In this document: in pieces, positions 5,799-49,684 of the stretch
Layout of the letters: the number at the start of each line of letters is the position of its first letter
Numbering within the stretch: the stretch's first letter is position 1
Source: a virus
Lineage: Duplodnaviria > Caudoviricetes
Strand: one strand, 5' to 3'
Virus record (IMG/VR): IMGVR_UViG_3300028176_000004
Location: 411-64,410 of that record
Length of the DNA stretch: 64,000 bases
The notes under the pieces: model-generated
What the model saw: only the letters and a program-made list of their open reading frames with translations
Told to the model about the DNA's origin: nothing
The model's database searches: none
Translations under genes and position numbers: made by a program

Positions 5799-6593
5799 TT
5801 AATTATTCTCATTTTGAAAAACTTTTAGAATCCATTTTGGATTTAGTCGTAACTTAAAATACATCAAGCTATCACTATCACAATGACCACCATCGTTCAC
5901 TAACTTTTTACGGTTTTGGATATAAGGCATTTGATAAAAATTATATCGCATAAGTTCATTCAAAAATGGTGTACCGTCATCAATACAATATCGATAATTT
6001 ATGAACGCATAATTTTCATCAAAAACATTCATCCCCACACACACGCCGTCATTAAATAACCCCCAACGATTTTTCCCCATAAGAACAAATTGTATCAGGA
6101 GTTCGTTATCAAATAACTCACGGCCATCAGCCCATTTTAACAATAACGTCTCAGCTGCTTCGCTGTCCTCTAAACTATCGGTCAACGGTCGATATACTAA
6201 AGCACCACCGCTTCTTGCTGGATATTTGCGTATGTTCCTGCGGAACGCTTTCCACTGCTTACCCTGAAGGTTGTTAAATGATTTGGGGTCGTAAATATAT
6301 TGATAATCCAAAACCTTGAAATGAGTCTTTTGTGATTTACCATCTTCCACCACGCTGCTATAAAAGGGCACACTGGTCTCTAATTCCCCCAAAGCATTCA
6401 ATGGTGGGAAATACCATTCCCCATTATCCTTAAAACCCCTCAAACCACCGTCAATAGAATACTTCAAACCCTTGAGTTCAATATACTCCAGGCTCATCCA
6501 GAAATTTGGCAAATGCTTAGCTTTCTGAATCGCCGCTAAGTATTCCAAGATTTCCGCCCTTTTTCGCATCTGAGTTGCTGTTAGTCTTTCCAC
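5799..6593 (-). CDS. DUF2156-like GNAT (MprF/LPG synthase C-terminal type, putative aminoacyl-tRNA-dependent transferase)
   Basis: DYQYIYDPKSFNNLQGKQWKAFRRNIRKY and VNDGGHCDSDSLMYFKLRLNP match the DUF2156 pattern (DY.Y...L.G...R / N.G....L..FK..L.P). Start codon uncertain. Confidence 0.7.
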   Translation of the reverse strand: MERLTATQMRKRAEILEYLAAIQKAKHLPNFWMSLEYIELKGLKYSIDGGLRGFKDNGEWYFPPLNALGELETSVPFYSSVVEDGKSQKTHFKVLDYQYIYDPKSFNNLQGKQWKAFRRNIRKYPARSGGALVYRPLTDSLEDSEAAETLLLKWADGRELFDNELLIQFVLMGKNRWGLFNDGVCVGMNVFDENYAFINYRYCIDDGTPFLNELMRYNFYQMPYIQNRKKLVNDGGHCDSDSLMYFKLRLNPKWILKVFQNENN

Positions 6594-6672
6594 GGCACTT
6601 CTTTCTGTTTTTAACTAATTTATTAATTAATGCTTTAGATACACCGCCACTTTTTCTGCTTTTACCGCCCAT
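6517..6672 (-). CDS. Small basic Gly/Lys/Ser-rich peptide (51 aa)
   Basis: Hand translation MGGKSRKSGGVSKALINKLVKNRKKCRGKTNSNSDAKKGGNLGILSGDSES; SD AAAGGA about 7 nt before the ATG; overlaps the DUF2156 start. Confidence 0.55.
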   Translation of the reverse strand: MGGKSRKSGGVSKALINKLVKNRKKCRGKTNSNSDAKKGGNLGILSGDSES

Positions 6673-6690
6673 ATGTATTTCCTTTAACTT

Positions 6691-7398
6691 CTAACCGCCC
6701 AATTCATCATATACACACTGAGAAATGATACCCGTGAAGGGCATCGCCTTCTCATTACTTTCGAACAAAACTACATCTTTACCAACGAAGTAAAATGCTA
6801 CGGAACCCACAAAAGAAAACAACGCCAAAAAGTCATTAGTTCGCACCCCTATGGATGAAAAATCTTTCAACGGTTCAGCCGCTAACAATCCATCAGACTT
6901 CTGCTGTTTAATGGTAACCACCGAACCGGAATATATGTTGCGTTGCTGGCAAATAAATTCACCGCCTTCCACCTTGAATTCAATGTGGGATAATTCCTCA
7001 TCCAACAACTTAATAAAATCCTCATCCAAAACAATCTTATTGCAACGCTTGGCTGAAGACACTACATCTTTATAATACTTTTGAACCTGCTTGGGTGAGT
7101 GGTCAGGTGTCCGGCAGGACTTCTGACGAATGTACTTGCCTTCTTTTTGAATGAAAACAATCCGTCCATCTTTCTCAGTGAACTTATTGCTATCATAATC
7201 AGACGCCATAAACGACACCGGATGCTCAAAAGTTTTTTCACCCCTTCGCAAAGGGCAACGCATTAGCACGGTGTGGTCTTGATTCATAATGAATACCGAA
7301 TCGCCTAAACAATAGATAGTATTCTTCAAACGTCCATTTTGCTGTAATGCCGCCGCATGCGCAAAAATATTTTCTACTCTTTTTCTCACTTCATTCAT
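6691..7398 (-). CDS. Hypothetical beta-rich protein (possibly clamp-like)
   Basis: 235-aa ORF with SD AAAGGA and an upstream promoter motif; no motif recognised. Confidence 0.6.
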   Translation of the reverse strand: MNEVRKRVENIFAHAAALQQNGRLKNTIYCLGDSVFIMNQDHTVLMRCPLRRGEKTFEHPVSFMASDYDSNKFTEKDGRIVFIQKEGKYIRQKSCRTPDHSPKQVQKYYKDVVSSAKRCNKIVLDEDFIKLLDEELSHIEFKVEGGEFICQQRNIYSGSVVTIKQQKSDGLLAAEPLKDFSSIGVRTNDFLALFSFVGSVAFYFVGKDVVLFESNEKAMPFTGIISQCVYDELGG

Positions 7399-7423
7399 AT
7401 CATATCCTTTTATGTTAAACTAC

Positions 7424-7437
7424 ATATATAAATCGTA
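7424..7437 (-). promoter_or_regulatory. ACGATA-type promoter motif (variant TACGATTTATATAT)
   Basis: Intergenic variant of the motif seen at 11841, 42352, 45390, 50050, 50154 and 50636. Confidence 0.45.
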
Positions 7438-7440
7438 GAC

Positions 7441-7827
7441 TCAGTGGAATTTAATCTGTTTATAAGCAAACTTTTTCCACTTCCCACCATCTAAATATTT
7501 TTGTACGACACTTTCCTCAATCCCTAATCGCATACAAACAATGCTAAGTGGCTTCTTACGCACTATATGTTGAAAGTAGATATATTCCCCAGCTGACTCA
7601 TTTACAGACGTATACGGCAAATCTGCCAACGGGTACACATCATACTCTTTCTTGTCCGGATAATCAGTAGCATCTTGACAAATACGCTCAAACGATTTTT
7701 CAACGTCATTCGCCTTCTTACCCAAAGCACGTGCTATGGTAGTGAATGGGATGCTACGAGTGGCGCAGAAAAATATAAACACATATCCATTATCACCATA
7801 CTGTTTATTCACATTACCGTCCATCAC
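7441..7827 (-). CDS. Putative tandem-HTH DNA-binding protein
   Basis: Two HTH-like segments, FTTIARALGKKANDVEK and PLSIVCMRLGIEESVVQKYL; start overlaps the radical SAM stop. Confidence 0.5.
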   Translation of the reverse strand: MMDGNVNKQYGDNGYVFIFFCATRSIPFTTIARALGKKANDVEKSFERICQDATDYPDKKEYDVYPLADLPYTSVNESAGEYIYFQHIVRKKPLSIVCMRLGIEESVVQKYLDGGKWKKFAYKQIKFH

Positions 7828-9224
7828 ACTAAACCTTTCAAAATATCTAATCTAAAATCACTATTATCAAAACGCCAAATTATGTTGCCGTCTGAATTAC
7901 CGGCCACATCCAATCCTCTACTCCAACTATGGCTGTACGCATCGTTACCCCCACAATTCCACAATTGGTGAACTTCCTGTTCTAATGCTTCTGATAAAAA
8001 GCCACCACGCTTATTTACCCAAGCCGCAAATTGCTTCCAAGTGGTTGGCTTTCCCTTCTTGGATTTTATATAACGGGCCGCCATTACCGTACAACCCCAA
8101 TTCATGCCAAAATCCTTAAACCAATCACCCACTTCACAACAAACGGATTGGTCGTTGTCGGGATTATTTCCCATATCAAACGTAGAACAACTGAACCCTT
8201 CTTTGCGGAACTCTTTCATAAATTCACCCAGCAACAAACTTCCCAACGCCTGAGAATCGCACCCTGCTAAAACAATCCTTTGCCAATCCAATCCCACGTT
8301 CTTGAAACTTTGACTGATACCTGGATTTTTAGCGGTGTATGAATACGTATCAAACGTGATATTCTTCACGCCAATACGTTTCATATCTTCCATGTACTTC
8401 ATAACATCTTCTTGCCGGTCATTTACAAAAGGTAAAAACGGCTCAATGCGGGCAACTACTCTAACCCCTGCCTGTACAAGTTCTTCCATGGCGTCCACTC
8501 TTTCTTGGTAGGATGGTGCGCCTGGTTCAATGGACTTTAATAATTTATCATCACTACTAATCAACGTGATATGAATAGCAGTTCCGGCCTTATTTCGTGA
8601 TAATGCTTTAACATATGCGCTCTCACCCACCAACGCTGATTTCGTGTTTATCATCAACGGATATGCATTGTCTGCTAAGTATTCCAGCAACTGTAAAGCA
8701 ATTCCATACTGCTTTTCCTCTTCCAAAAAATCTTCAAAACGAATACCGAACCTCATGGGTATCTGCATGGCTATTGCCTTGGCAACGGAATTTTTAACCG
8801 CATGAGGGTCGGTGCCTCGTAACACCATCATTTTATCTAATTCTGTTTTGTACTTATCTGGATTGCAATGACGATACCCCATTGTTTTACTGTTATCAAA
8901 AAACGCCGTATATAACGATGCCCTGAAGGCATTTGCATAGCAATATTTACAATCAAACGGACACAAAAGCCCATCCCAAATATCTATATTCAACGGCATA
9001 GGACACGCCGCCGCTCTACACGATATTTCAACAAAGCTGTTTACTTCTTCCGTATTCAGCAAACGTTCCTGCTTCACCCAATTTTCACCGTTCAACTTGA
9101 ATTCTTGATATCCGGTTTTACGGCCTTTTTCTTTGACAGCTTTAGCCTTGGTCTTGTGTGTCAAAAATCCGCTCATACGAGGAACTATTTTGGAAACGTC
9201 TTTTCTCAAATCCCAATAACTCAT
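7824..9224 (-). CDS. Radical SAM enzyme, spore photoproduct lyase (SPL/SplB)-like
   Basis: CPMPLNIDIWDGLLCPFDCKYC contains CX3CX2C; also VVARIEPFLP and a C-terminal CCEVG. Confidence 0.85.
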   Translation of the reverse strand: MSYWDLRKDVSKIVPRMSGFLTHKTKAKAVKEKGRKTGYQEFKLNGENWVKQERLLNTEEVNSFVEISCRAAACPMPLNIDIWDGLLCPFDCKYCYANAFRASLYTAFFDNSKTMGYRHCNPDKYKTELDKMMVLRGTDPHAVKNSVAKAIAMQIPMRFGIRFEDFLEEEKQYGIALQLLEYLADNAYPLMINTKSALVGESAYVKALSRNKAGTAIHITLISSDDKLLKSIEPGAPSYQERVDAMEELVQAGVRVVARIEPFLPFVNDRQEDVMKYMEDMKRIGVKNITFDTYSYTAKNPGISQSFKNVGLDWQRIVLAGCDSQALGSLLLGEFMKEFRKEGFSCSTFDMGNNPDNDQSVCCEVGDWFKDFGMNWGCTVMAARYIKSKKGKPTTWKQFAAWVNKRGGFLSEALEQEVHQLWNCGGNDAYSHSWSRGLDVAGNSDGNIIWRFDNSDFRLDILKGLV

Positions 9225-9287
9225 TTTATACTTTCATCAAATAATTATTGTTGTCTTAATATCATTGTCTTAATATCGTTAATGTGC

Positions 9288-10001
9288 TTACAATCCAAAC
9301 CCTTCTAAAATCTTGATTGTAAATTTATCCTTACAATCAATAAACACTCTATCAAATTTACCCTTTTTTGCTTTTACTAACATTACATGTTTATTGGGGT
9401 ATAAATATACACTTTCAATTCCCCATCCCATCAGGTTTATAAAGGACTCAGCAACGTTCAGATAATCATTTAATCTATCAATATCCCATTTCTTTAAAGA
9501 AAAAGGAAAGACGTCAGTCCATATAAAACATTGTGTGGTAGCAGATAGCATTTGAAGAAAAGACAACACCATTTTAATTTGCTTTGTGAATGTAAACCTG
9601 TTGTGGTCAAAAAAGCAACAATCAATAGTGGTTCCCCCCCTTTTAAGTAGACGTTGTGTAAGAACATCACGATTATAAATACGTTGATTTGGAAAAAAAC
9701 GTTCCAAACAATGCACCAAATCAATGTTTATATCATTCAATATCATTATAGGGTCATGAAGTTCTTTTATCATAGCACTACTAAATCCAATTCCAGCAAA
9801 TGGCTCTAAATAAGTTTTTACATTTTCTTCAGAAAGAAACGCATACAAACCGTTAAGCTTATAAACTAAATCAGTGTTTTGATTCATCCCCTTTTTTATT
9901 TTTTTAATTGATGTGAAACTGGTTTTTACTTTTTCTGGAACATCTATCACATAAGATATTTTTCTATTGTAGCATTTCATTTCCATTATAAAGTCCTGCA
10001 T
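9288..10001 (-). CDS. Class I SAM-binding (methyltransferase-fold) enzyme with a non-canonical catalytic motif
   Basis: Motif I YLEPFAGIG, ILNDIN, IYNRDV; FFDHNRF sits where DPPY would be expected. Confidence 0.7.
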   Translation of the reverse strand: MQDFIMEMKCYNRKISYVIDVPEKVKTSFTSIKKIKKGMNQNTDLVYKLNGLYAFLSEENVKTYLEPFAGIGFSSAMIKELHDPIMILNDINIDLVHCLERFFPNQRIYNRDVLTQRLLKRGGTTIDCCFFDHNRFTFTKQIKMVLSFLQMLSATTQCFIWTDVFPFSLKKWDIDRLNDYLNVAESFINLMGWGIESVYLYPNKHVMLVKAKKGKFDRVFIDCKDKFTIKILEGFGL

Positions 10002-11049
10002 CTTTCATAGTGTAATTATCGCATTTTGTACCGTGTAAAATTTTCTGTGCTAAATCCTTGTCGCCGATACCTTCCCACGTTTTTTCCAAAACCTGTTCCG
10101 GTGTATATCCTTTTTGAAGTAACCGCTTCCAATAATGTGTATTTCCTCTGGTTGGATTGGGAACGTTTATTCCACAACAGGTGTTTGCCTTTTCTTTCCA
10201 TTCAGGGCCGGTGTTAACAAAATCAGGGCAACCTAAGAGCATATCATGCTTTTTCGCTATATCACACAATTGTTGCTGAATCTTCTTCCAATGTTGGTCT
10301 TGATTATATTTCCATATCTTTTCAATATCCACGCCGATATTACACAACCGCTTCGCCACAAAATCATTAAAATGAAAATTATATGTATTGTAGCTTTTCA
10401 CGCCAATAGATTTTAACCGCACCACCATATCTTCGAATTGAGAGACGGTATGGAATCCTGGGATAAAAGGTTCACCATTTACACCAACATTATATCCTAA
10501 TTTGATATACTGCTTGATATATTTCAATCTTTTGTCAATTGTGGGTGTCCTGCCCCGTTCCAATAATTCTTGGTCTATATCACCCCCAGGACTTATAACA
10601 GGCATAATACTCAACAACCCCTCTTCATTGGCAGAGGACAGCAAAGCTTCATCCCTATACAAAGTATTCACGAACCTGGTTTGTATAACAAAACTCCACT
10701 TGAGTTTTATTAAAATCTGAAGAATTTGATGCGATACCTCATATTGAAGTTCCGCTGGTTGGTATGGGTCTGATTTATTTCCTAATCGCAATGTTTTTTT
10801 GCGGTAGAGTGCGTGAGCTAAGGTGGTGTGTGGATTTTTATTTTTTAATCCATTTACCAATTTACGCTCCACATCCTCTGGGTTGGCCGGTCGTAAATCT
10901 GTACCCCAAACATGATTTAATCGCCGAACCCAACAATGGTGGCAATCAACCAAACAATTCCAATATGAGTCTATGGAAAGAGACAAGGGGCAATATAAAC
11001 AATCACCCCTAACTCCCACCGCTGCTTTGTATGTTTTCATCAGGCTCAT
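9964..11049 (-). CDS. Second SPL-like radical SAM enzyme
   Basis: CPLSLSIDSYWNCLVDCHHC contains CX3CX2C; GNKSDPYQPAE (SplB/Rv2578c-like), VNGEPFIPG and a C-terminal CCG. Confidence 0.85.
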   Translation of the reverse strand: MSLMKTYKAAVGVRGDCLYCPLSLSIDSYWNCLVDCHHCWVRRLNHVWGTDLRPANPEDVERKLVNGLKNKNPHTTLAHALYRKKTLRLGNKSDPYQPAELQYEVSHQILQILIKLKWSFVIQTRFVNTLYRDEALLSSANEEGLLSIMPVISPGGDIDQELLERGRTPTIDKRLKYIKQYIKLGYNVGVNGEPFIPGFHTVSQFEDMVVRLKSIGVKSYNTYNFHFNDFVAKRLCNIGVDIEKIWKYNQDQHWKKIQQQLCDIAKKHDMLLGCPDFVNTGPEWKEKANTCCGINVPNPTRGNTHYWKRLLQKGYTPEQVLEKTWEGIGDKDLAQKILHGTKCDNYTMKDAGLYNGNEMLQ

Positions 11050-11786
11050 TTCATTTTCTTGATTTGGCCACCCTTACGTGCTATGATACCTATGCGCTTC
11101 AAAATGGCTATAACCTTATTGTAGGCATATGCCGCTTCCTTGATGTTGTTCTTGCCACCGTTCTCAGCATACGAATCATCTGCCGCCGTAATAACGTCAG
11201 ACTCACTTTTAACAGCACCCGTTTCCAACGCCATAATTACATCCACTGTAACGTCTACACGTGTAATTTTTTTGTCAGCTGCGGCGTTCTTCAACTTCTT
11301 CGCCGGTTCCTCAGCTTCTTCGGCTTTCTTCGATTTCTTGACCTTTTGGGCTTTCTTGACCGGTGCTTCTTCGGCTTCTTCGGCTTCTTCGGCTTCTTCG
11401 GCTTCTTCGGCTTCTTCGGCTTCTTCAGCTTCAACCTCTTCGGCTTCTTCCTCAGCTTCAACCTCTTCGGCCTTCTTGGACTTTCTTGAACGCTTGGACT
11501 TCTTGGCAGGTGCGTCTTCAGCTTCGGCTTCTTCGGCCTCATCCGATATTTCGATTGACTCTTCAATCAACGCCTGAAGAATAGCAGTTTGACGCTCATC
11601 ATCAAACGTGGATGCTATCTCATCACCCTCACCTTCCAACAGTACCGGAATCTGGGACAGGGTCTTTTCGAATTTCTCATCATCCCACTGACGGGCAGCC
11701 TTGTACCCCAAACCCTCTAATACCAAAATCACTTCTTCCTTGGTTGCCTTTACGGTTGCCGCTTCATTTTTTGTTTTCTTTGCCAT
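11046..11786 (-). CDS. Acidic/basic low-complexity protein with an (EEA)n tract
   Basis: ORF with SD AGAGGA before MAKKTK; alternating EEA-rich and KKSK-rich blocks; helical C-terminal domain. Confidence 0.75.
   Translation of the reverse strand: MAKKTKNEAATVKATKEEVILVLEGLGYKAARQWDDEKFEKTLSQIPVLLEGEGDEIASTFDDERQTAILQALIEESIEISDEAEEAEAEDAPAKKSKRSRKSKKAEEVEAEEEAEEVEAEEAEEAEEAEEAEEAEEAEEAPVKKAQKVKKSKKAEEAEEPAKKLKNAAADKKITRVDVTVDVIMALETGAVKSESDVITAADDSYAENGGKNNIKEAAYAYNKVIAILKRIGIIARKGGQIKKMK
11365..11427. repeat. 9-bp tandem repeat (GCTTCTTCG) x6 plus one variant, encoding EEA x7
   Basis: Directly visible in the sequence. Confidence 0.95.
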
Positions 11787-11840
11787 CTTCGTGTCCTCTT
11801 GTGTTTTATTAATTTTTAACATCCTACGTACATTACATTC

Positions 11841-11854
11841 AATATATTATCGTA
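11841..11854 (-). promoter_or_regulatory. Promoter motif TACGATAATATATT heading the radical SAM operon
   Basis: Identical 14-mer at 42352-42365; near matches upstream of metK and other genes. Confidence 0.6.
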
Positions 11855-11890
11855 AAAGCAATGATAAATTGCAATAAGATTTTTAACTTT

Positions 11891-13300
11891 TTATGGATAA
11901 ATTGATTTTATAGCAACGTCACCAATATCCTTACACCCAGCCACATGAACGCATCGGGCCACTTCGAACTCCTCTTCACGCCGGACAACCCAATTTAATC
12001 TGGTTATTTGCTTCTTTTTCTCTTGTTCGTTCATATTTAGTCCAATCATACCCGTCACATGGGCGTTTTTTCGCTTATCGTCTGAAAAATTCTCTTGGCG
12101 GATAACTTCGGCTGTATACGCCGCCGAATCGGATTGAGTGGCCGTAACTAATAAACAATGATATTTTTGACTTACCCCACGCAGTTGCTTCCACGTTTCA
12201 TTTATCCGGTCTCTGCCCTCAACTCCAGGATAAGTCATATCCAAAATATCGGCATAGTCCAATACGATAACATCTGGAACCCAACCATCCAACGCCCAAC
12301 CATCCAGTATAGATTTAATCTTGTTAACATGAAGTGAACTGTTGGTGTGGCAACTTAATTTGAAATATGTTTCCCTGCTTCGAATCTTTGTCTTCAAAAT
12401 CTTCTTACACGCTTGCCAAGCCACTTGCCAGGATAATGGAGTGGTAAAAACTTTAGACTTATATTTTACCATCGCAACTTTTTGGTCATTATCCTTTTTC
12501 ATCGCCACCGGAATCTGAACTGTTTTCACATACACTGGATGGCGTGCTACTCGTACCATCAACCGTTTCATTATCTGATTTCTACTATTATCACCAGCCT
12601 CAAAGAACGCAACACGCCGCCGCTGTAACGATGCTCTGAAAGCAATATCGTGCAACCAAAAACTTTTACCCCTCTTGTCGGGTGCCACCAATGCAATAAA
12701 ACTATCACGGGCCAAACTATTACCAAAAAACAACCCCAAATCCCCACTGTACTGAACTATACTTTTTTGCTGTTGTTCGAATGCTTCTTGAATTACGGTC
12801 TTGGATTGAAAAACATCAATCCCTTCGCCACCACCTAATTCTATCTGATTGAAAGTAATTATGGCCTCATGAGCCTTTTCCGCATTACCCAAATCCAAAT
12901 AGGTCTCGATGGTATCTTTCAGCTTTTCAACCTGAACCCTGTTGAAATACCTACCAGCCAAATCTAATACATAATCTGGATTGACTTCATGTTCTTCGTT
13001 TTCAACATCTACCACCGCAATAAACTTCTCAATCAACGTTACCAAAGCATCATCATCAATCGAATCCGCCCACGTGGTATAAATATGCTCAATGTCGGCC
13101 CTGGGTGCTTTTTCATAACTCTTATAATAATCTACACACCACTTGCCAACCAAATTACTCCAATTGTTTTTGAATAACCCACCACCCATCCATTTGGATG
13201 CTATTCTACTCAACACATAATCATTCACAATCATACTACTCAAAATCACTCGTTCATCTTTGCGGTCAAACTTTTTGATTTTCATAAAATTCCTTAACAA
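11891..13300 (-). CDS. dnaB: DnaB-like replicative helicase
   Basis: Walker A APDKRGKS, Walker B IVLDYADI, LVTATQSD, FSDDKRK; next to the primase. Confidence 0.88.
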   Translation of the reverse strand: MLRNFMKIKKFDRKDERVILSSMIVNDYVLSRIASKWMGGGLFKNNWSNLVGKWCVDYYKSYEKAPRADIEHIYTTWADSIDDDALVTLIEKFIAVVDVENEEHEVNPDYVLDLAGRYFNRVQVEKLKDTIETYLDLGNAEKAHEAIITFNQIELGGGEGIDVFQSKTVIQEAFEQQQKSIVQYSGDLGLFFGNSLARDSFIALVAPDKRGKSFWLHDIAFRASLQRRRVAFFEAGDNSRNQIMKRLMVRVARHPVYVKTVQIPVAMKKDNDQKVAMVKYKSKVFTTPLSWQVAWQACKKILKTKIRSRETYFKLSCHTNSSLHVNKIKSILDGWALDGWVPDVIVLDYADILDMTYPGVEGRDRINETWKQLRGVSQKYHCLLVTATQSDSAAYTAEVIRQENFSDDKRKNAHVTGMIGLNMNEQEKKKQITRLNWVVRREEEFEVARCVHVAGCKDIGDVAIKSIYP

Positions 13301-44131: not shown

Positions 44132-45274
44132 TTACATAATATTCAAGTTTATGCTTTCCCAGGGGAATTTTCCACGGCCAAAATGCCCGTTTGTAGCTGT
44201 TCTTTGGTAAATCGGTTCCTTTAGGTTTAATTGCTGGATGATGGAATCTGGCGTCATGTTTACGTTCTTCATTATAGCAGTCCGCAACGCAGCATCATCC
44301 ATCACGCCGGTTCCGAATGTATTCACCCGCACATCCACCGGTTCGGCCACCCCAATCGCATAACTAATACTCACACGGCATTCCTCTGCCAACTGGAGCC
44401 ATACCACGTTCCTTGCGATAGCACGGGCCATATACGCACCGCTGCGGTCTACTTTGGATGGGTCTTTTCCACTGAAGGCACCACCACCATGAACACACCG
44501 GCCACCATAGGTATCTACGATTATTTTGCGACCAGTCAATCCAGTGTCCGCCGCAGGGCCACCCAGGATGAATTGGCCGGTGGGGTTGATGTGGTATTTG
44601 GTGGTGGGTGTGGTTTGGAATTGGTCGTTGTCACCCAGAATCACCGGAATCAACGTGGTAATAATATCACGTTGAATCGTACCCAAGTCCACCTTCAACG
44701 AATGCTGAGTGGATACCACGATGCTCTGTATTTCATGAATACCATCTGGTGTGGTATGAATTGTAACTTGACTCTTTCCATCCGGCTGTAAATAGCTACA
44801 AATACCATCCACACGCCACTTCCATAGCTTCTTGGTGATTTCGTGAGCTAAGTACAATGACGCCGGAATCATTGCCTTGGTATCATCGCACGCATACCCA
44901 TACACGGTTCCCTGGTCTCCAGCACCAGACGGGAATAATGATTTTTTAACACCCATAGCAATATCTGGACTTTGGTGACGGATGTGGACCCGAACATCAC
45001 AGCCTTTGATATTGAATCCGTTCTTTTCATTATACCCCACACCATGGATAACATTCATGGCTATATTCTTCACGAATTCGTCAGACATATCCGCATTACT
45101 CGTTACCTCACCCGCCACCACAAGTAATTTATCCGTGATTAGCGTTTCCACCGCCACATAGCTTTCCTTATCAAACATCAAACACCGGTCAAGTATAGCA
45201 TCTGATATTTGGTCAGCTAATTTGTCTGGGTGTCCTATTGTTACACTTTCACTGGTTTCCCAACGTTCTTTCAT
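44132..45274 (-). CDS. metK: S-adenosylmethionine synthetase
   Basis: TSESVTIGHPDKLADQISDAILD, GAGDQG, DGKSQV, GLTGRKIIVDTYGG, GGGAFSGKDPSKVDRS. Confidence 0.97.
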   Translation of the reverse strand: MKERWETSESVTIGHPDKLADQISDAILDRCLMFDKESYVAVETLITDKLLVVAGEVTSNADMSDEFVKNIAMNVIHGVGYNEKNGFNIKGCDVRVHIRHQSPDIAMGVKKSLFPSGAGDQGTVYGYACDDTKAMIPASLYLAHEITKKLWKWRVDGICSYLQPDGKSQVTIHTTPDGIHEIQSIVVSTQHSLKVDLGTIQRDIITTLIPVILGDNDQFQTTPTTKYHINPTGQFILGGPAADTGLTGRKIIVDTYGGRCVHGGGAFSGKDPSKVDRSGAYMARAIARNVVWLQLAEECRVSISYAIGVAEPVDVRVNTFGTGVMDDAALRTAIMKNVNMTPDSIIQQLNLKEPIYQRTATNGHFGRGKFPWESINLNIM

Positions 45275-48396: not shown

Positions 48397-48966
48397 TTAT
48401 CCTACAAAGTGTTGTGTGGGTCGTGGCCTTTGACTTGGGCCTGGTGGGGTGGTTGGTTCCTCATCGACAATAGAACCCTCACCATACCGTTCCAACAACG
48501 GTCGTAAATCTACAGGCTTGTAATTGGCCGGTTTAATCACCTTACCATTAGCGTCATGGTGTACGCTTCCATCTTCATCCACCTTACTCATATTATTCTC
48601 GTGAACTAAATTGAACGCTTCGGCCAGTATATCACCCATCCCGTATACAATGGCCGTTCCTACAACCACATACATCGTATCTACCAATCCATCCAATATC
48701 TCTACCATATCACCCACGGCTATGGCTTCAATGGTTTCTGATAGTTCTGAGGTCATTAATCTTACACGTAACAACGCCGTGGCGGAATCTACCAATTGGG
48801 GCGTATCACCAATCATACAACCGAATGCCCGATGAAAATCAATAAGCTTCTCAACCATATCGGTCAGACGTAATCTGGCTTTCAATTTTTCAATCGCCGC
48901 CATACGGGCCGCCTGAGCTTCTGGGGTCATCAGTGGAACCCAATTTTCTTTTTCTTCCTTCGTCAT
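48397..48966 (-). CDS. MazG-like (PRA-PH/YP_001813558-type) NTP pyrophosphohydrolase
   Basis: DFHRAFG...LRVRLMTSELSE...EILDGLVDTMYV...VHENNMSK...GKVIKP. Confidence 0.85.
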   Translation of the reverse strand: MTKEEKENWVPLMTPEAQAARMAAIEKLKARLRLTDMVEKLIDFHRAFGCMIGDTPQLVDSATALLRVRLMTSELSETIEAIAVGDMVEILDGLVDTMYVVVGTAIVYGMGDILAEAFNLVHENNMSKVDEDGSVHHDANGKVIKPANYKPVDLRPLLERYGEGSIVDEEPTTPPGPSQRPRPTQHFVG

Positions 48967-48979
48967 AATAACTTCCTTT

Positions 48980-49282
48980 TCATTTGAATATAAATTTCAC
49001 TACATTATCAAATGGATATGGGACTATTTCCAGTGGGTGGTCGCCGTCTGTTTGTGCTGGATAAAACCCACTTCCATACGCTACATCTTTCCACACACCC
49101 ACTTCATTAAATCTAAAATCAATTGTAGCCACGGCAAACATTCCAGGCTGCTCCTTTAACTCTACGCAACACCCGATAATACCCGTCAGAACTGTTTGAG
49201 CCTCCTTCGTGGCTTCCTGATGAGGTGTATATATACGGTCTTGTTTATCTGATTTCATATATGTCGCTTTCAATAATCGCAA
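48980..49282 (-). CDS. Hypothetical protein
   Basis: 100-aa ORF. Confidence 0.55.
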   Translation of the reverse strand: MRLLKATYMKSDKQDRIYTPHQEATKEAQTVLTGIIGCCVELKEQPGMFAVATIDFRFNEVGVWKDVAYGSGFYPAQTDGDHPLEIVPYPFDNVVKFIFK

Positions 49283-49321
49283 ATTCCAGTTTTACATAAT
49301 CGATTAACAGCCATATTATCA

Positions 49322-49684
49322 TCACAGTTTCTTTCCATGTTTAAATGGCCTGTACCGATTGTATTCCATCTTAGCCACCACTGCCTTCAATACCGCTAAA
49401 CTTTCCACCGCTGCCAAGTCTAACACCCGTATAATCACATCAGCAAGTTCTTCTTCCAACAAGCTGAAATTGGGTGTGTGGTCTGATGGCTTTCTGCCTA
49501 TTATTTCTATCTCTGTATGAAAATCAATTCGTGCAGCTTCTACTGCCTCAGCTACTTCCGTCATAATCAATGCCAGTCTTTCAATGACAGATGTTTTACG
49601 GTCATGGAATCCGTGCTGTTTGGGATGATTTCCTTTTGAGGTGTTCTTGTTTTGTCGCCGCTGCCGCTGCTTCCATAGCTTCAC
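49322..49684 (-). CDS. MazG-like nucleotide pyrophosphohydrolase (start uncertain)
   Basis: HGFHD...LALIMTEVAEAVEA...EEELADVIIRVLD...AKMEYNRYRPFKHGK. Confidence 0.8.
   Translation of the reverse strand: MKLWKQRQRRQNKNTSKGNHPKQHGFHDRKTSVIERLALIMTEVAEAVEAARIDFHTEIEIIGRKPSDHTPNFSLLEEELADVIIRVLDLAAVESLAVLKAVVAKMEYNRYRPFKHGKKL

Follow-up and report, generated by a model that had tools for sequence, protein, structure and literature searches.

A conserved gene module with two radical-SAM proteins in a phage replication arm: a candidate system for DNA base modification

The IMG/VR virus record IMGVR_UViG_3300028176_000004 (64,410 bp, completeness estimate 93%) derives from a phage of the Caudoviricetes, and the 64,000-nucleotide stretch analysed here (the window) represents nearly all of it. 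Every gene in the replication-arm region lies on the minus strand. Between the genes of a DnaB-like helicase (11891..13300, 469 aa) and a replisome processivity factor, P333 (4786..5787, 333 aa), there is a block of eight open reading frames (ORFs), in which the original prediction had seen a candidate new DNA hypermodification system dependent on S-adenosylmethionine (SAM) and radical chemistry. All eight minus-strand ORFs were present at the coordinates claimed. In transcription order they encode an acidic protein (11046..11822, 258 aa), the radical-SAM protein RS1 (9964..11049, 361 aa), MTL, a protein with the class I SAM-methyltransferase fold (9288..10001, 237 aa), RS2, a radical-SAM protein with an N-terminal extension (7824..9224, 466 aa), a 128-aa ORF (7441..7827), P235 (6691..7398, 235 aa), the 51-aa basic peptide p51 (6517..6672) and P264 (5799..6593, 264 aa). 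Several starts overlap the upstream stops, as had been noticed: the overlaps are 4 nt for the acidic protein and RS1, 38 nt for RS1 and MTL, 4 nt for RS2 and the 128-aa ORF, and 77 nt for p51 and P264. The intergenic regions upstream of P235 (7400-7445) and of the acidic gene (11823-11875) have the motif TACGAT-W-W-ATAT in common on the minus strand.

Past P333 the replication arm continues with a uracil-DNA glycosylase-like/3′-5′ exonuclease gene, a family A polymerase and a clamp loader of the AAA+ type. Between this polymerase and those of cultured phages the identity reaches about 25% at most, and a DNA-level search against cultured phages did not find a relative of the block. No tRNA gene was found in the window.

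The motifs quoted in the original prediction were read in both radical-SAM proteins, CLVDCHHC and SDPYQPAE in RS1 and CPFDCKYC in RS2. RS2 matched the Pfam family Radical_SAM (PF04055) with 36.6 bits (cut-off 29.5, E 6.4e-9), which places it in the superfamily. The CX3CX2C motif was invariant in 22 RS2 and 38 RS1 homologs; in the RS1 alignment, where the motif corresponds to C32/C36/C39, C20 and the CC pair at positions 291-292 were invariant as well. Beyond CX3CX2C, a cysteine immediately preceding the cluster and a CC motif in the C-terminal part are common to both proteins. Comparison of the RS1 and RS2 profiles with hhalign yielded a probability of 99.8% over 323 columns, and by this sequence evidence the two proteins are paralogs of the SplB/COG1533 type.

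Assignment to narrower families was less successful. Both proteins matched the NCBIfam models PA0069 (NF033668) and Rv2578c (NF038135) with E-values from 1e-14 to 1e-17 (1.2e-17 for RS1 and PA0069), and the scores (63.9/53.3 bits for RS1, 50.8/58.6 for RS2, cut-offs 360/430) mark them as related to these families, not as members. Membership in the true spore photoproduct lyase (SPL) family, TIGR04070, was rejected: RS2 scored 13.5 bits (E 0.026, cut-off 400) and RS1 did not match. In a model of RS2 made with AlphaFold2 (AF2; pLDDT 74) the nominal best solved fold was SPL (Z 13.1, about 250 residues). The model matched radical-SAM folds with Z values of 11-13, and LipA, NifB and SuiB were within about 1 Z of SPL. 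The label "SPL-like" given to both proteins is therefore fair at the superfamily level, and neither protein is an SPL. The unassigned family phrog_13321 was matched by RS1, RS2 (E 4e-24), the third paralog RS3 and by gp53 of phage M6, a protein discussed below. In a phylogenetic tree RS1, a divergent RS1 type, RS2 and the third paralog formed four clean groups.

RS2 was the best-conserved protein among the replication-arm genes when four relatives were compared gene by gene (55-62% identity, vs 37-50% for PolA). A collection of 5.8 billion proteins contained 544 RS2 homologs; the best 120 were at least 55% identical and many of them were encoded on contigs of ~60-79 kb. One homolog, P0027 (604 aa), carries Hint and intein-splicing domains. 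Inteins are usually found in essential, highly conserved enzymes. In cultured phages there was no RS2 homolog except on two faecal contigs, and searching PDB sequences with phmmer and with the profiles of RS1, RS2 and A1 gave nothing useful.

The distribution of the genes was studied in a set comprising 80 IMG/VR loci collected with the RS2 profile, four earlier loci and the window, whose ORFs were clustered; the 55 loci spanning the region from the helicase to P333 are called complete. All 55 complete loci had at least two RS genes, 54 had P235 and 53 had P264, and of the 66 loci with both P235 and P264, 61 had the p51 motif between the two. A gene set recurring in this way in complete related loci is not due to chance, and the predicted co-occurrence of the radical-SAM pair with P264 in phage genomes was thus borne out. 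The same had been expected of MetK, and here the expectation failed. The window contains MetK and MazG/PRA-PH-like genes (44132-45274, 48397-49684) that have no counterpart in five relatives, and neither MetK nor MazG was retained as a part of the module.

A second set was built from the clamp loader. Eighty loci were taken from its 563 relatives in IMG/VR, and 29 of these had at least 7.5 kb of DNA upstream of the clamp loader. P333 was encoded in all 29. All five of RS1, RS2, P235, p51 and P264 occurred in three loci, which were all from contigs already in the module set; the other 26 sister loci had P333 and the clamp loader and lacked all five genes. This joint absence assigns P235, p51 and P264 to the module and not to the basic replisome. 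By gene content, RS1, RS2, P235, p51 and P264 are a module that is found only as a whole (5799-11049 in the window), with these five as core genes and a swappable tailoring gene in addition. The module belongs to a large clade: RS2 has hundreds of homolog clusters, and only some of the 563 clamp-loader relatives have the module. A literature search found no paper describing it.

Two of the eight ORFs turned out to lie outside the module. Homologs of the acidic protein were encoded directly after the helicase in module-free sister phages (L122, L113, L139, L160 and others; loci are referred to by L numbers), so that this protein, which had been counted among the members of the system, is a gene of the replication backbone that occurs with or without the module. 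The one NCBIfam model that it matched, far below threshold, describes a major capsid protein (23.9 bits, cut-off 75), and this match seems to stem artefactually from its AEE/KKSK low-complexity repeats. The 128-aa ORF did not match any family, and its cluster comprised two members in 82 loci, i.e. it had a homolog at one other locus. It is not a conserved module member, and the tandem helix-turn-helix label proposed for it could not be verified.

The borders of the module are shared with phages that lack it. The helicase, which has weak divDNAB and phage_DnaB matches and is conserved in 65 loci, forms the upstream border of a variable slot, and P333 forms the downstream border. We read the contents of this slot in 17 module-free sister loci showing both border genes. 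At eight loci (seven distinct sequences) it contained a QueD-QueE-FolE set with a DpdA-like transglycosylase (phrog_887), i.e. genes of 7-deazaguanine modification (L139:1287-6070, L101, L113, L122, L134, L159 and L160). The slot of L110 encoded a C5 DNA methylase and another methyltransferase, and that of L152/L153 two proteins that weakly matched a PHROG of DNA methyltransferases. L090 had an empty slot with a gap of 41 bp between helicase and P333; the remaining loci had other small sets of unannotated genes. By these contents the slot is a DNA-modification island of which the radical-SAM module is one alternative content. In our view no other observation argues as strongly as this positional equivalence for an action of the module on DNA.

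Within the module, the gene or genes between RS1 and RS2 vary from lineage to lineage. In the 55 complete loci this tailoring slot contained a pyridoxal phosphate (PLP) enzyme of ~280 aa at 33 loci, MTL at 16, an aldo-keto reductase at seven and a flavin adenine dinucleotide (FAD) oxidoreductase at one (L025; the incomplete locus L016 also has it), and an N6_N4 DNA methylase was encoded somewhere in the locus in 16. Three complete loci (L018, L036, L050) had none of these genes, and RS1 directly adjoined RS2 in L023, L036, L052 and others. The window phage has MTL alone. A DUF362 protein and the divergent RS1 type were encoded upstream in six loci. The divergent type, ~20% identical to RS1, was seen in L003, L013, L031, L040, L065, L074 and L079, mostly after DUF362 and sometimes with a GT2-like protein; L027, L052 and L077 had the third RS paralog (504-520 aa) with small unknown proteins.

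The tailoring enzymes connect the module with a known chemistry. To our knowledge, no radical-SAM enzyme other than M6 gp53 is known to introduce a DNA modification. The gp53 protein, SPL-like and encoded beside gp52, isomerises one glycinyl-thymine adduct into the other in DNA (PMC8989533). Of these adducts, C-alpha-glycinyl-thymine in DNA is decarboxylated by gp52, and N-alpha-glycinyl-thymine is cleaved by gp47 (PMC8989533). The PLP enzyme of the tailoring slot was 34% identical to M6 gp52 over the full length (E 6e-46), and among 50,697 phage records it matched only 66, all of M6-, Yua- and Bordetella CN1-type phages. The FAD enzyme of L016 and L025 was a homolog of PaMx11 gp47 (28% identity, E 1e-25), whose context was verified in phage PA_LZ03. 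M6 gp53 itself matched the RS1 profile with an hhalign probability of 98% (E 1.6e-13) and the RS2 profile with 82% (E 1e-5). RS2 was not accepted as a member of the gp53 family (phrog_9252, E 0.0072 only), the homology being clear by profile. Taken together with the slot position, the homology to gp53 and the gp52 and gp47 homologs of the relatives uphold the central claim of the original prediction, a coherent conserved block tied to phage DNA hypermodification.

All characterised thymidine hypermodifications, as far as we know, begin with pre-replicative 5-hydroxymethyldeoxyuridine (5-hmdU), which is followed by a DNA kinase and an amino-acid:DNA transferase. With the thymidine hypermodification pathway of Lee et al. 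(2018/2021) as the reference for membership tests, the 64,410-bp record contained no match to the 5-hmdU DNA kinase (PF18748, M6 gp54), to TET/JBP (PF12851) or to the amino-acid:DNA transferase (PF18724 aGPT-Pplase2, M6 gp51; no separate search covered clades 1 and 3 of aGPT-Pplase). The ThyA-family dUMP hydroxymethylase (PF00303) was found neither in the record nor in five relatives, three of them complete. Likewise, none of the four families had a match in the three 100%-complete relatives, two of which have a gp52 homolog. The absence of hmU synthase, hmU kinase and TET/JBP, which the original prediction had noticed, was thus confirmed by family searches and by queries with M6 gp51 and gp54. 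A published metagenome survey took the kinase as its starting point and could therefore not have recovered this kinase-free clade. The clade retains downstream hypermodification enzymes or their relatives and none of the known starters; the entry chemistry of the module, which does without the known starter enzymes, is probably undescribed.

MTL, the tailoring enzyme of the window phage, reads EPFAGIG and FFDHNRF and has no DPPY. In the family alignment the motif I glycine (G72) and D132 were invariant, and D-[FH]-N-x-F stood at motif IV where (D/N)PPY is expected. The structure available in the Atlas was nearest to tRNA m6A37/MTS amino-methyltransferases, with template-modelling (TM) scores of 0.63-0.67. 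These data agree with the description of MTL as a SAM-binding Rossmann enzyme lacking DPPY and support the class I methyltransferase fold. Assignment to the D12-class N6-adenine methyltransferases (PF02086) was rejected: the weak N-terminal D12/Dam match scored 18.1 bits against a cut-off of 22, and (D/N)PP(Y/F) is lacking.

For P235, which had been listed as an unknown of 235 aa, a function could be proposed. Over about 205-214 residues its Atlas model matched clusters of PCNA, gp45 and beta clamps with TM scores of 0.66-0.69, and on this model P235 is an extra sliding clamp with a PCNA/gp45-like two-domain fold. The P235 profile had no match among PDB sequences. P333, the other clamp-type protein of the phage, matched phrog_947, "DNA polymerase processivity factor" (2.8e-32); it is universal in the wider group, and P235 occurs only with the radical-SAM module. 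Prediction of a complex between P235 and MTL gave a score of 0.00, which is no verdict either way.

The small ORF encoding p51 was confirmed as a conserved gene. An alignment of 32 homologs displayed an invariant N-terminus (MGGKSRKxGGxS..LI), a variable basic middle part and a C-terminal end of the GL/LF type. Tails of the form G[FL]G?[LF] or LF, following a basic linker, were also seen at the C-terminus of MTL (9288-9310; 13 of 16 proteins), in N6_N4 methylases, in some RS1 proteins and in p51 (6517-6560), with homologs in L002-L084. Judged by their recurrence in sequence, these tails may serve as a common docking motif, with the extra clamp as a conceivable partner. In the polymerase cluster, a PIP-like terminal Q..I..LPF was traced to the exo/pol junction of split polymerases and discarded.

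P264 had been labelled a DUF2156 protein of the GNAT type, and the label held at the level of the fold. Foldseek with an AF2 model of high confidence (pLDDT 95) matched 2hqy (DUF2156) at 4.6e-10 and MprF/aminoacyl-phosphatidylglycerol synthases (aaPGS) at 1e-8 to 1e-7; after 2hqy the fold matches included MprF, L-PGS/A-PGS, FemX, Sbb17 and ATE1. The P264 profile matched 2hqy too, with a DYIY...GKK..R..I..F-type motif in register. The score against PF09924 (LPG_synthase_C) was 21.9 bits (E 1.1e-4), below the cut-off of 27.5, and 11 of 36 family members matched. In a representative library the profile recovered in-family proteins only (531 at E<=1e-3, 272 at E<=1e-30). The models thus assign P264 with high confidence to the tandem-GNAT fold of aminoacyl-tRNA-dependent transferases, the use of such a donor being putative. 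A literature search found no paper linking DUF2156 to phage DNA.

Read from the genes alone, these observations point to a module that modifies DNA bases, a reading to which we assign a probability of roughly 0.6. The most likely product would be an amino-acid-derived hypermodified base, probably carrying the substituent at C5 of thymine, in newly replicated phage DNA.

Several observations weigh against this reading or limit it. The window phage has neither a gp52 nor a gp47 homolog, so that its tie to glycinyl-thymine is by family and not direct. In the RS tree gp53 was on a branch of 5.5 substitutions and did not join any group with support; neither RS1 nor RS2 can therefore be called its ortholog, and the relationship is one of homology. 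In the fold comparison of RS2, SPL led the other radical-SAM folds by a narrow margin only. An aminoacyl-tRNA transferase forms esters or amides, which are not obviously the amine- or carbon-linked adducts used by gp52 and gp47; P264 might aminoacylate a side-chain amine, or p51. The absence of MetK and the MazG-like genes from the five relatives makes them lineage-specific local additions. The sequence motif upstream of P235 and the acidic gene hints at a phage promoter, with possibly two transcription units in the block.

To the same side belongs the avoidance of restriction sites. In the window (1-64000) the observed and expected numbers of 4-bp palindromes were 4/243 for GATC, 0/70 for CTAG and 3/98 for CGCG. 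TGCA, CATG and GCGC were at 0.38-0.45 of expectation, and TCGA, CCGG, GGCC and AATT were normal. The relatives had lineage-specific patterns of avoidance that included T-containing sites; L082, for example, was without GATC, CGCG, GTAC and TCGA. With such strong avoidance, the phage DNA evidently remains exposed to type II enzymes and lacks a broad shield. A modification, if present, is partial, sequence-limited or aimed at other defences, and the proposal that it serves to evade restriction sits badly with the extreme avoidance of GATC, CTAG, CGCG, TGCA and CATG.

Other substrates than a base in DNA were also considered. The module enzymes might mature p51, a ribosomal precursor or carrier, in the manner of the peptides that ribosomes synthesize and that are modified after translation (RiPPs) or of peptide aminoacyl-tRNA ligases (PEARLs), and produce a modified peptide that binds DNA or the clamp. 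The invariant 16-residue N-terminus of p51, the translational overlap of its gene with P264, and its gain and loss together with the module enzymes would fit a precursor, as would the RiPP maturases SuiB and SkfB among the fold matches of RS2 and the peptide-forming aminoacyl-tRNA enzymes Sbb17, FemX and ATE1 among those of P264. However, the tailoring genes of the relatives are homologs of enzymes that act on DNA-bound glycine, the module sits in a DNA-modification slot and includes a sliding clamp, sequence searches revealed no SPASM or RiPP-recognition family, and p51 consists of variable low-complexity sequence in its C-terminal half. We consider peptide maturation improbable. Pre-replicative chemistry, in which a free (deoxy)nucleotide is altered or a nucleoside-like metabolite is incorporated or used against the host, seems to us similarly hard to credit. 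It would account for the varying combinations of radical-SAM, PLP, aldo-keto reductase, FAD, glycosyltransferase-like and methyltransferase genes, which resemble a natural-product cluster, and for the MazG-like pyrophosphohydrolases and MetK encoded by the phage. Yet gp52, gp53 and gp47 work on DNA polymers (PMC8989533), a dedicated clamp would be pointless anywhere but on DNA, the five relatives have neither MazG nor MetK, and neither a nucleotide kinase nor an alternative polymerase accompanies the module.

Direct reversal of photoproducts or other lesions at the fork by RS1 and RS2 would keep the substrate and change the purpose. SPL as the nominal best solved fold (Z 13.1), the name "DNA repair photolyase" attached to homologs in the sources and the location in the replication arm speak for such a repair function, whereas the score of 13.5 bits against the TIGR04070 cut-off of 400 speaks against it. 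Repair would also leave the two or three paralogs, the tailoring enzymes, the aminoacyl-tRNA transferase and the peptide unexplained, and the sister phages swap the set for base-modification genes, not for repair genes. Among the explanations considered here it is very improbable.

If the module modifies DNA bases, its most far-reaching form would be a direct radical C-H functionalisation, free of oxygen and 5-hmdU, in which canonical thymine or some other standard base of duplex DNA is the target; it would be carried out on the module's own clamp with an amino acid taken from aminoacyl-tRNA. We regard this specific scheme as speculative and rather unlikely. In the mechanism that we consider most likely for the module as a whole, P235 would serve as a platform on replicated DNA. 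One radical-SAM paralog would generate, via a 5′-deoxyadenosyl radical, a base-centred radical or an oxidised electrophile; by analogy with SPL chemistry this may happen at the thymine methyl, and a relay for electrons or hydrogen could be formed by the three additional conserved cysteines. Thymine-methyl radicals in DNA are part of the chemistry of the SPL family. Next, the base would be joined to an amino acid, probably glycine, which P264 may deliver from aminoacyl-tRNA, and the other RS paralog would rearrange the adduct in a gp53-like reaction. Lineage-specific tailoring would follow: decarboxylation or oxidative cleavage in the relatives and, in the window phage, SAM-dependent methylation of the side chain by MTL, a step that the phage MetK may support.

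With its swappable gene, the tailoring slot leads us to expect not one base but a family of related and distinct ones, of which the window phage would have a methylated, non-decarboxylated variant. If the RS paralogs and the tRNA-type transferase replace the known starters, the module would represent a new route for writing chemistry on ordinary DNA, which would interest enzymologists and developers of DNA-labelling tools. It would be an anaerobic counterpart of the TET/JBP route and an example of a modification machine served by a second sliding clamp of its own. Were the direct C-H route true, it would in addition offer a post-replicative entry needing no special nucleotide pool, and the first aminoacyl-tRNA-dependent DNA modification.

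Among the known systems the module is best compared with the M6/Yuavirus pathway to 5-(2-aminoethyl)deoxyuridine (5-NedU), which consists of the amino-acid:DNA transferase gp51, the PLP decarboxylase gp52, the radical-SAM isomerase gp53, the 5-hmdU DNA kinase gp54 and a ThyA-like dUMP hydroxymethylase. RS1 and RS2 are SPL-like homologs of gp53, and the gp52 homolog of 33 of the 55 relatives mostly lies directly upstream of RS2, in the order gp52-gp53. Where M6 has a single radical-SAM enzyme, the module has two or three paralogs; searches for a hydroxymethylase, a kinase and an amino-acid:DNA transferase found none, and the window is without a gp52 homolog. It adds an extra clamp, a peptide and an aminoacyl-tRNA-type transferase. 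The PaMx11 pathway to 5-aminomethyldeoxyuridine (5-NmdU) and 5-acetylaminomethyldeoxyuridine (5-AcNmdU), gp46-gp49, is represented by the homolog of the FAD-dependent lyase gp47 between RS1 and RS2 in L016 and L025; this homolog is rare in the clade and absent from the window, and equivalents of gp46, gp48 and gp49 were not found.

At the level of single proteins, SPL (SplB, PDB 4fhc) has the radical-SAM TIM-barrel also seen in the RS2 model and is its best structural match, whereas the identity is 13-16% and the extensions at both termini are different, the conserved CC motif among them. P264 shares the tandem-GNAT fold with DUF2156, the C-terminal aaPGS domain of MprF, FemX and Sbb17. In contrast to the aaPGS-type enzymes it is a soluble protein of ~260 aa encoded in a phage DNA-modification module. 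The 7-deazaguanine clusters (FolE, QueD, QueE, DpdA) use unrelated enzymes on another target base and never occurred together with the module in the 29 loci examined, but they occupy the same slot between helicase and processivity factor and are also built round a radical-SAM enzyme.

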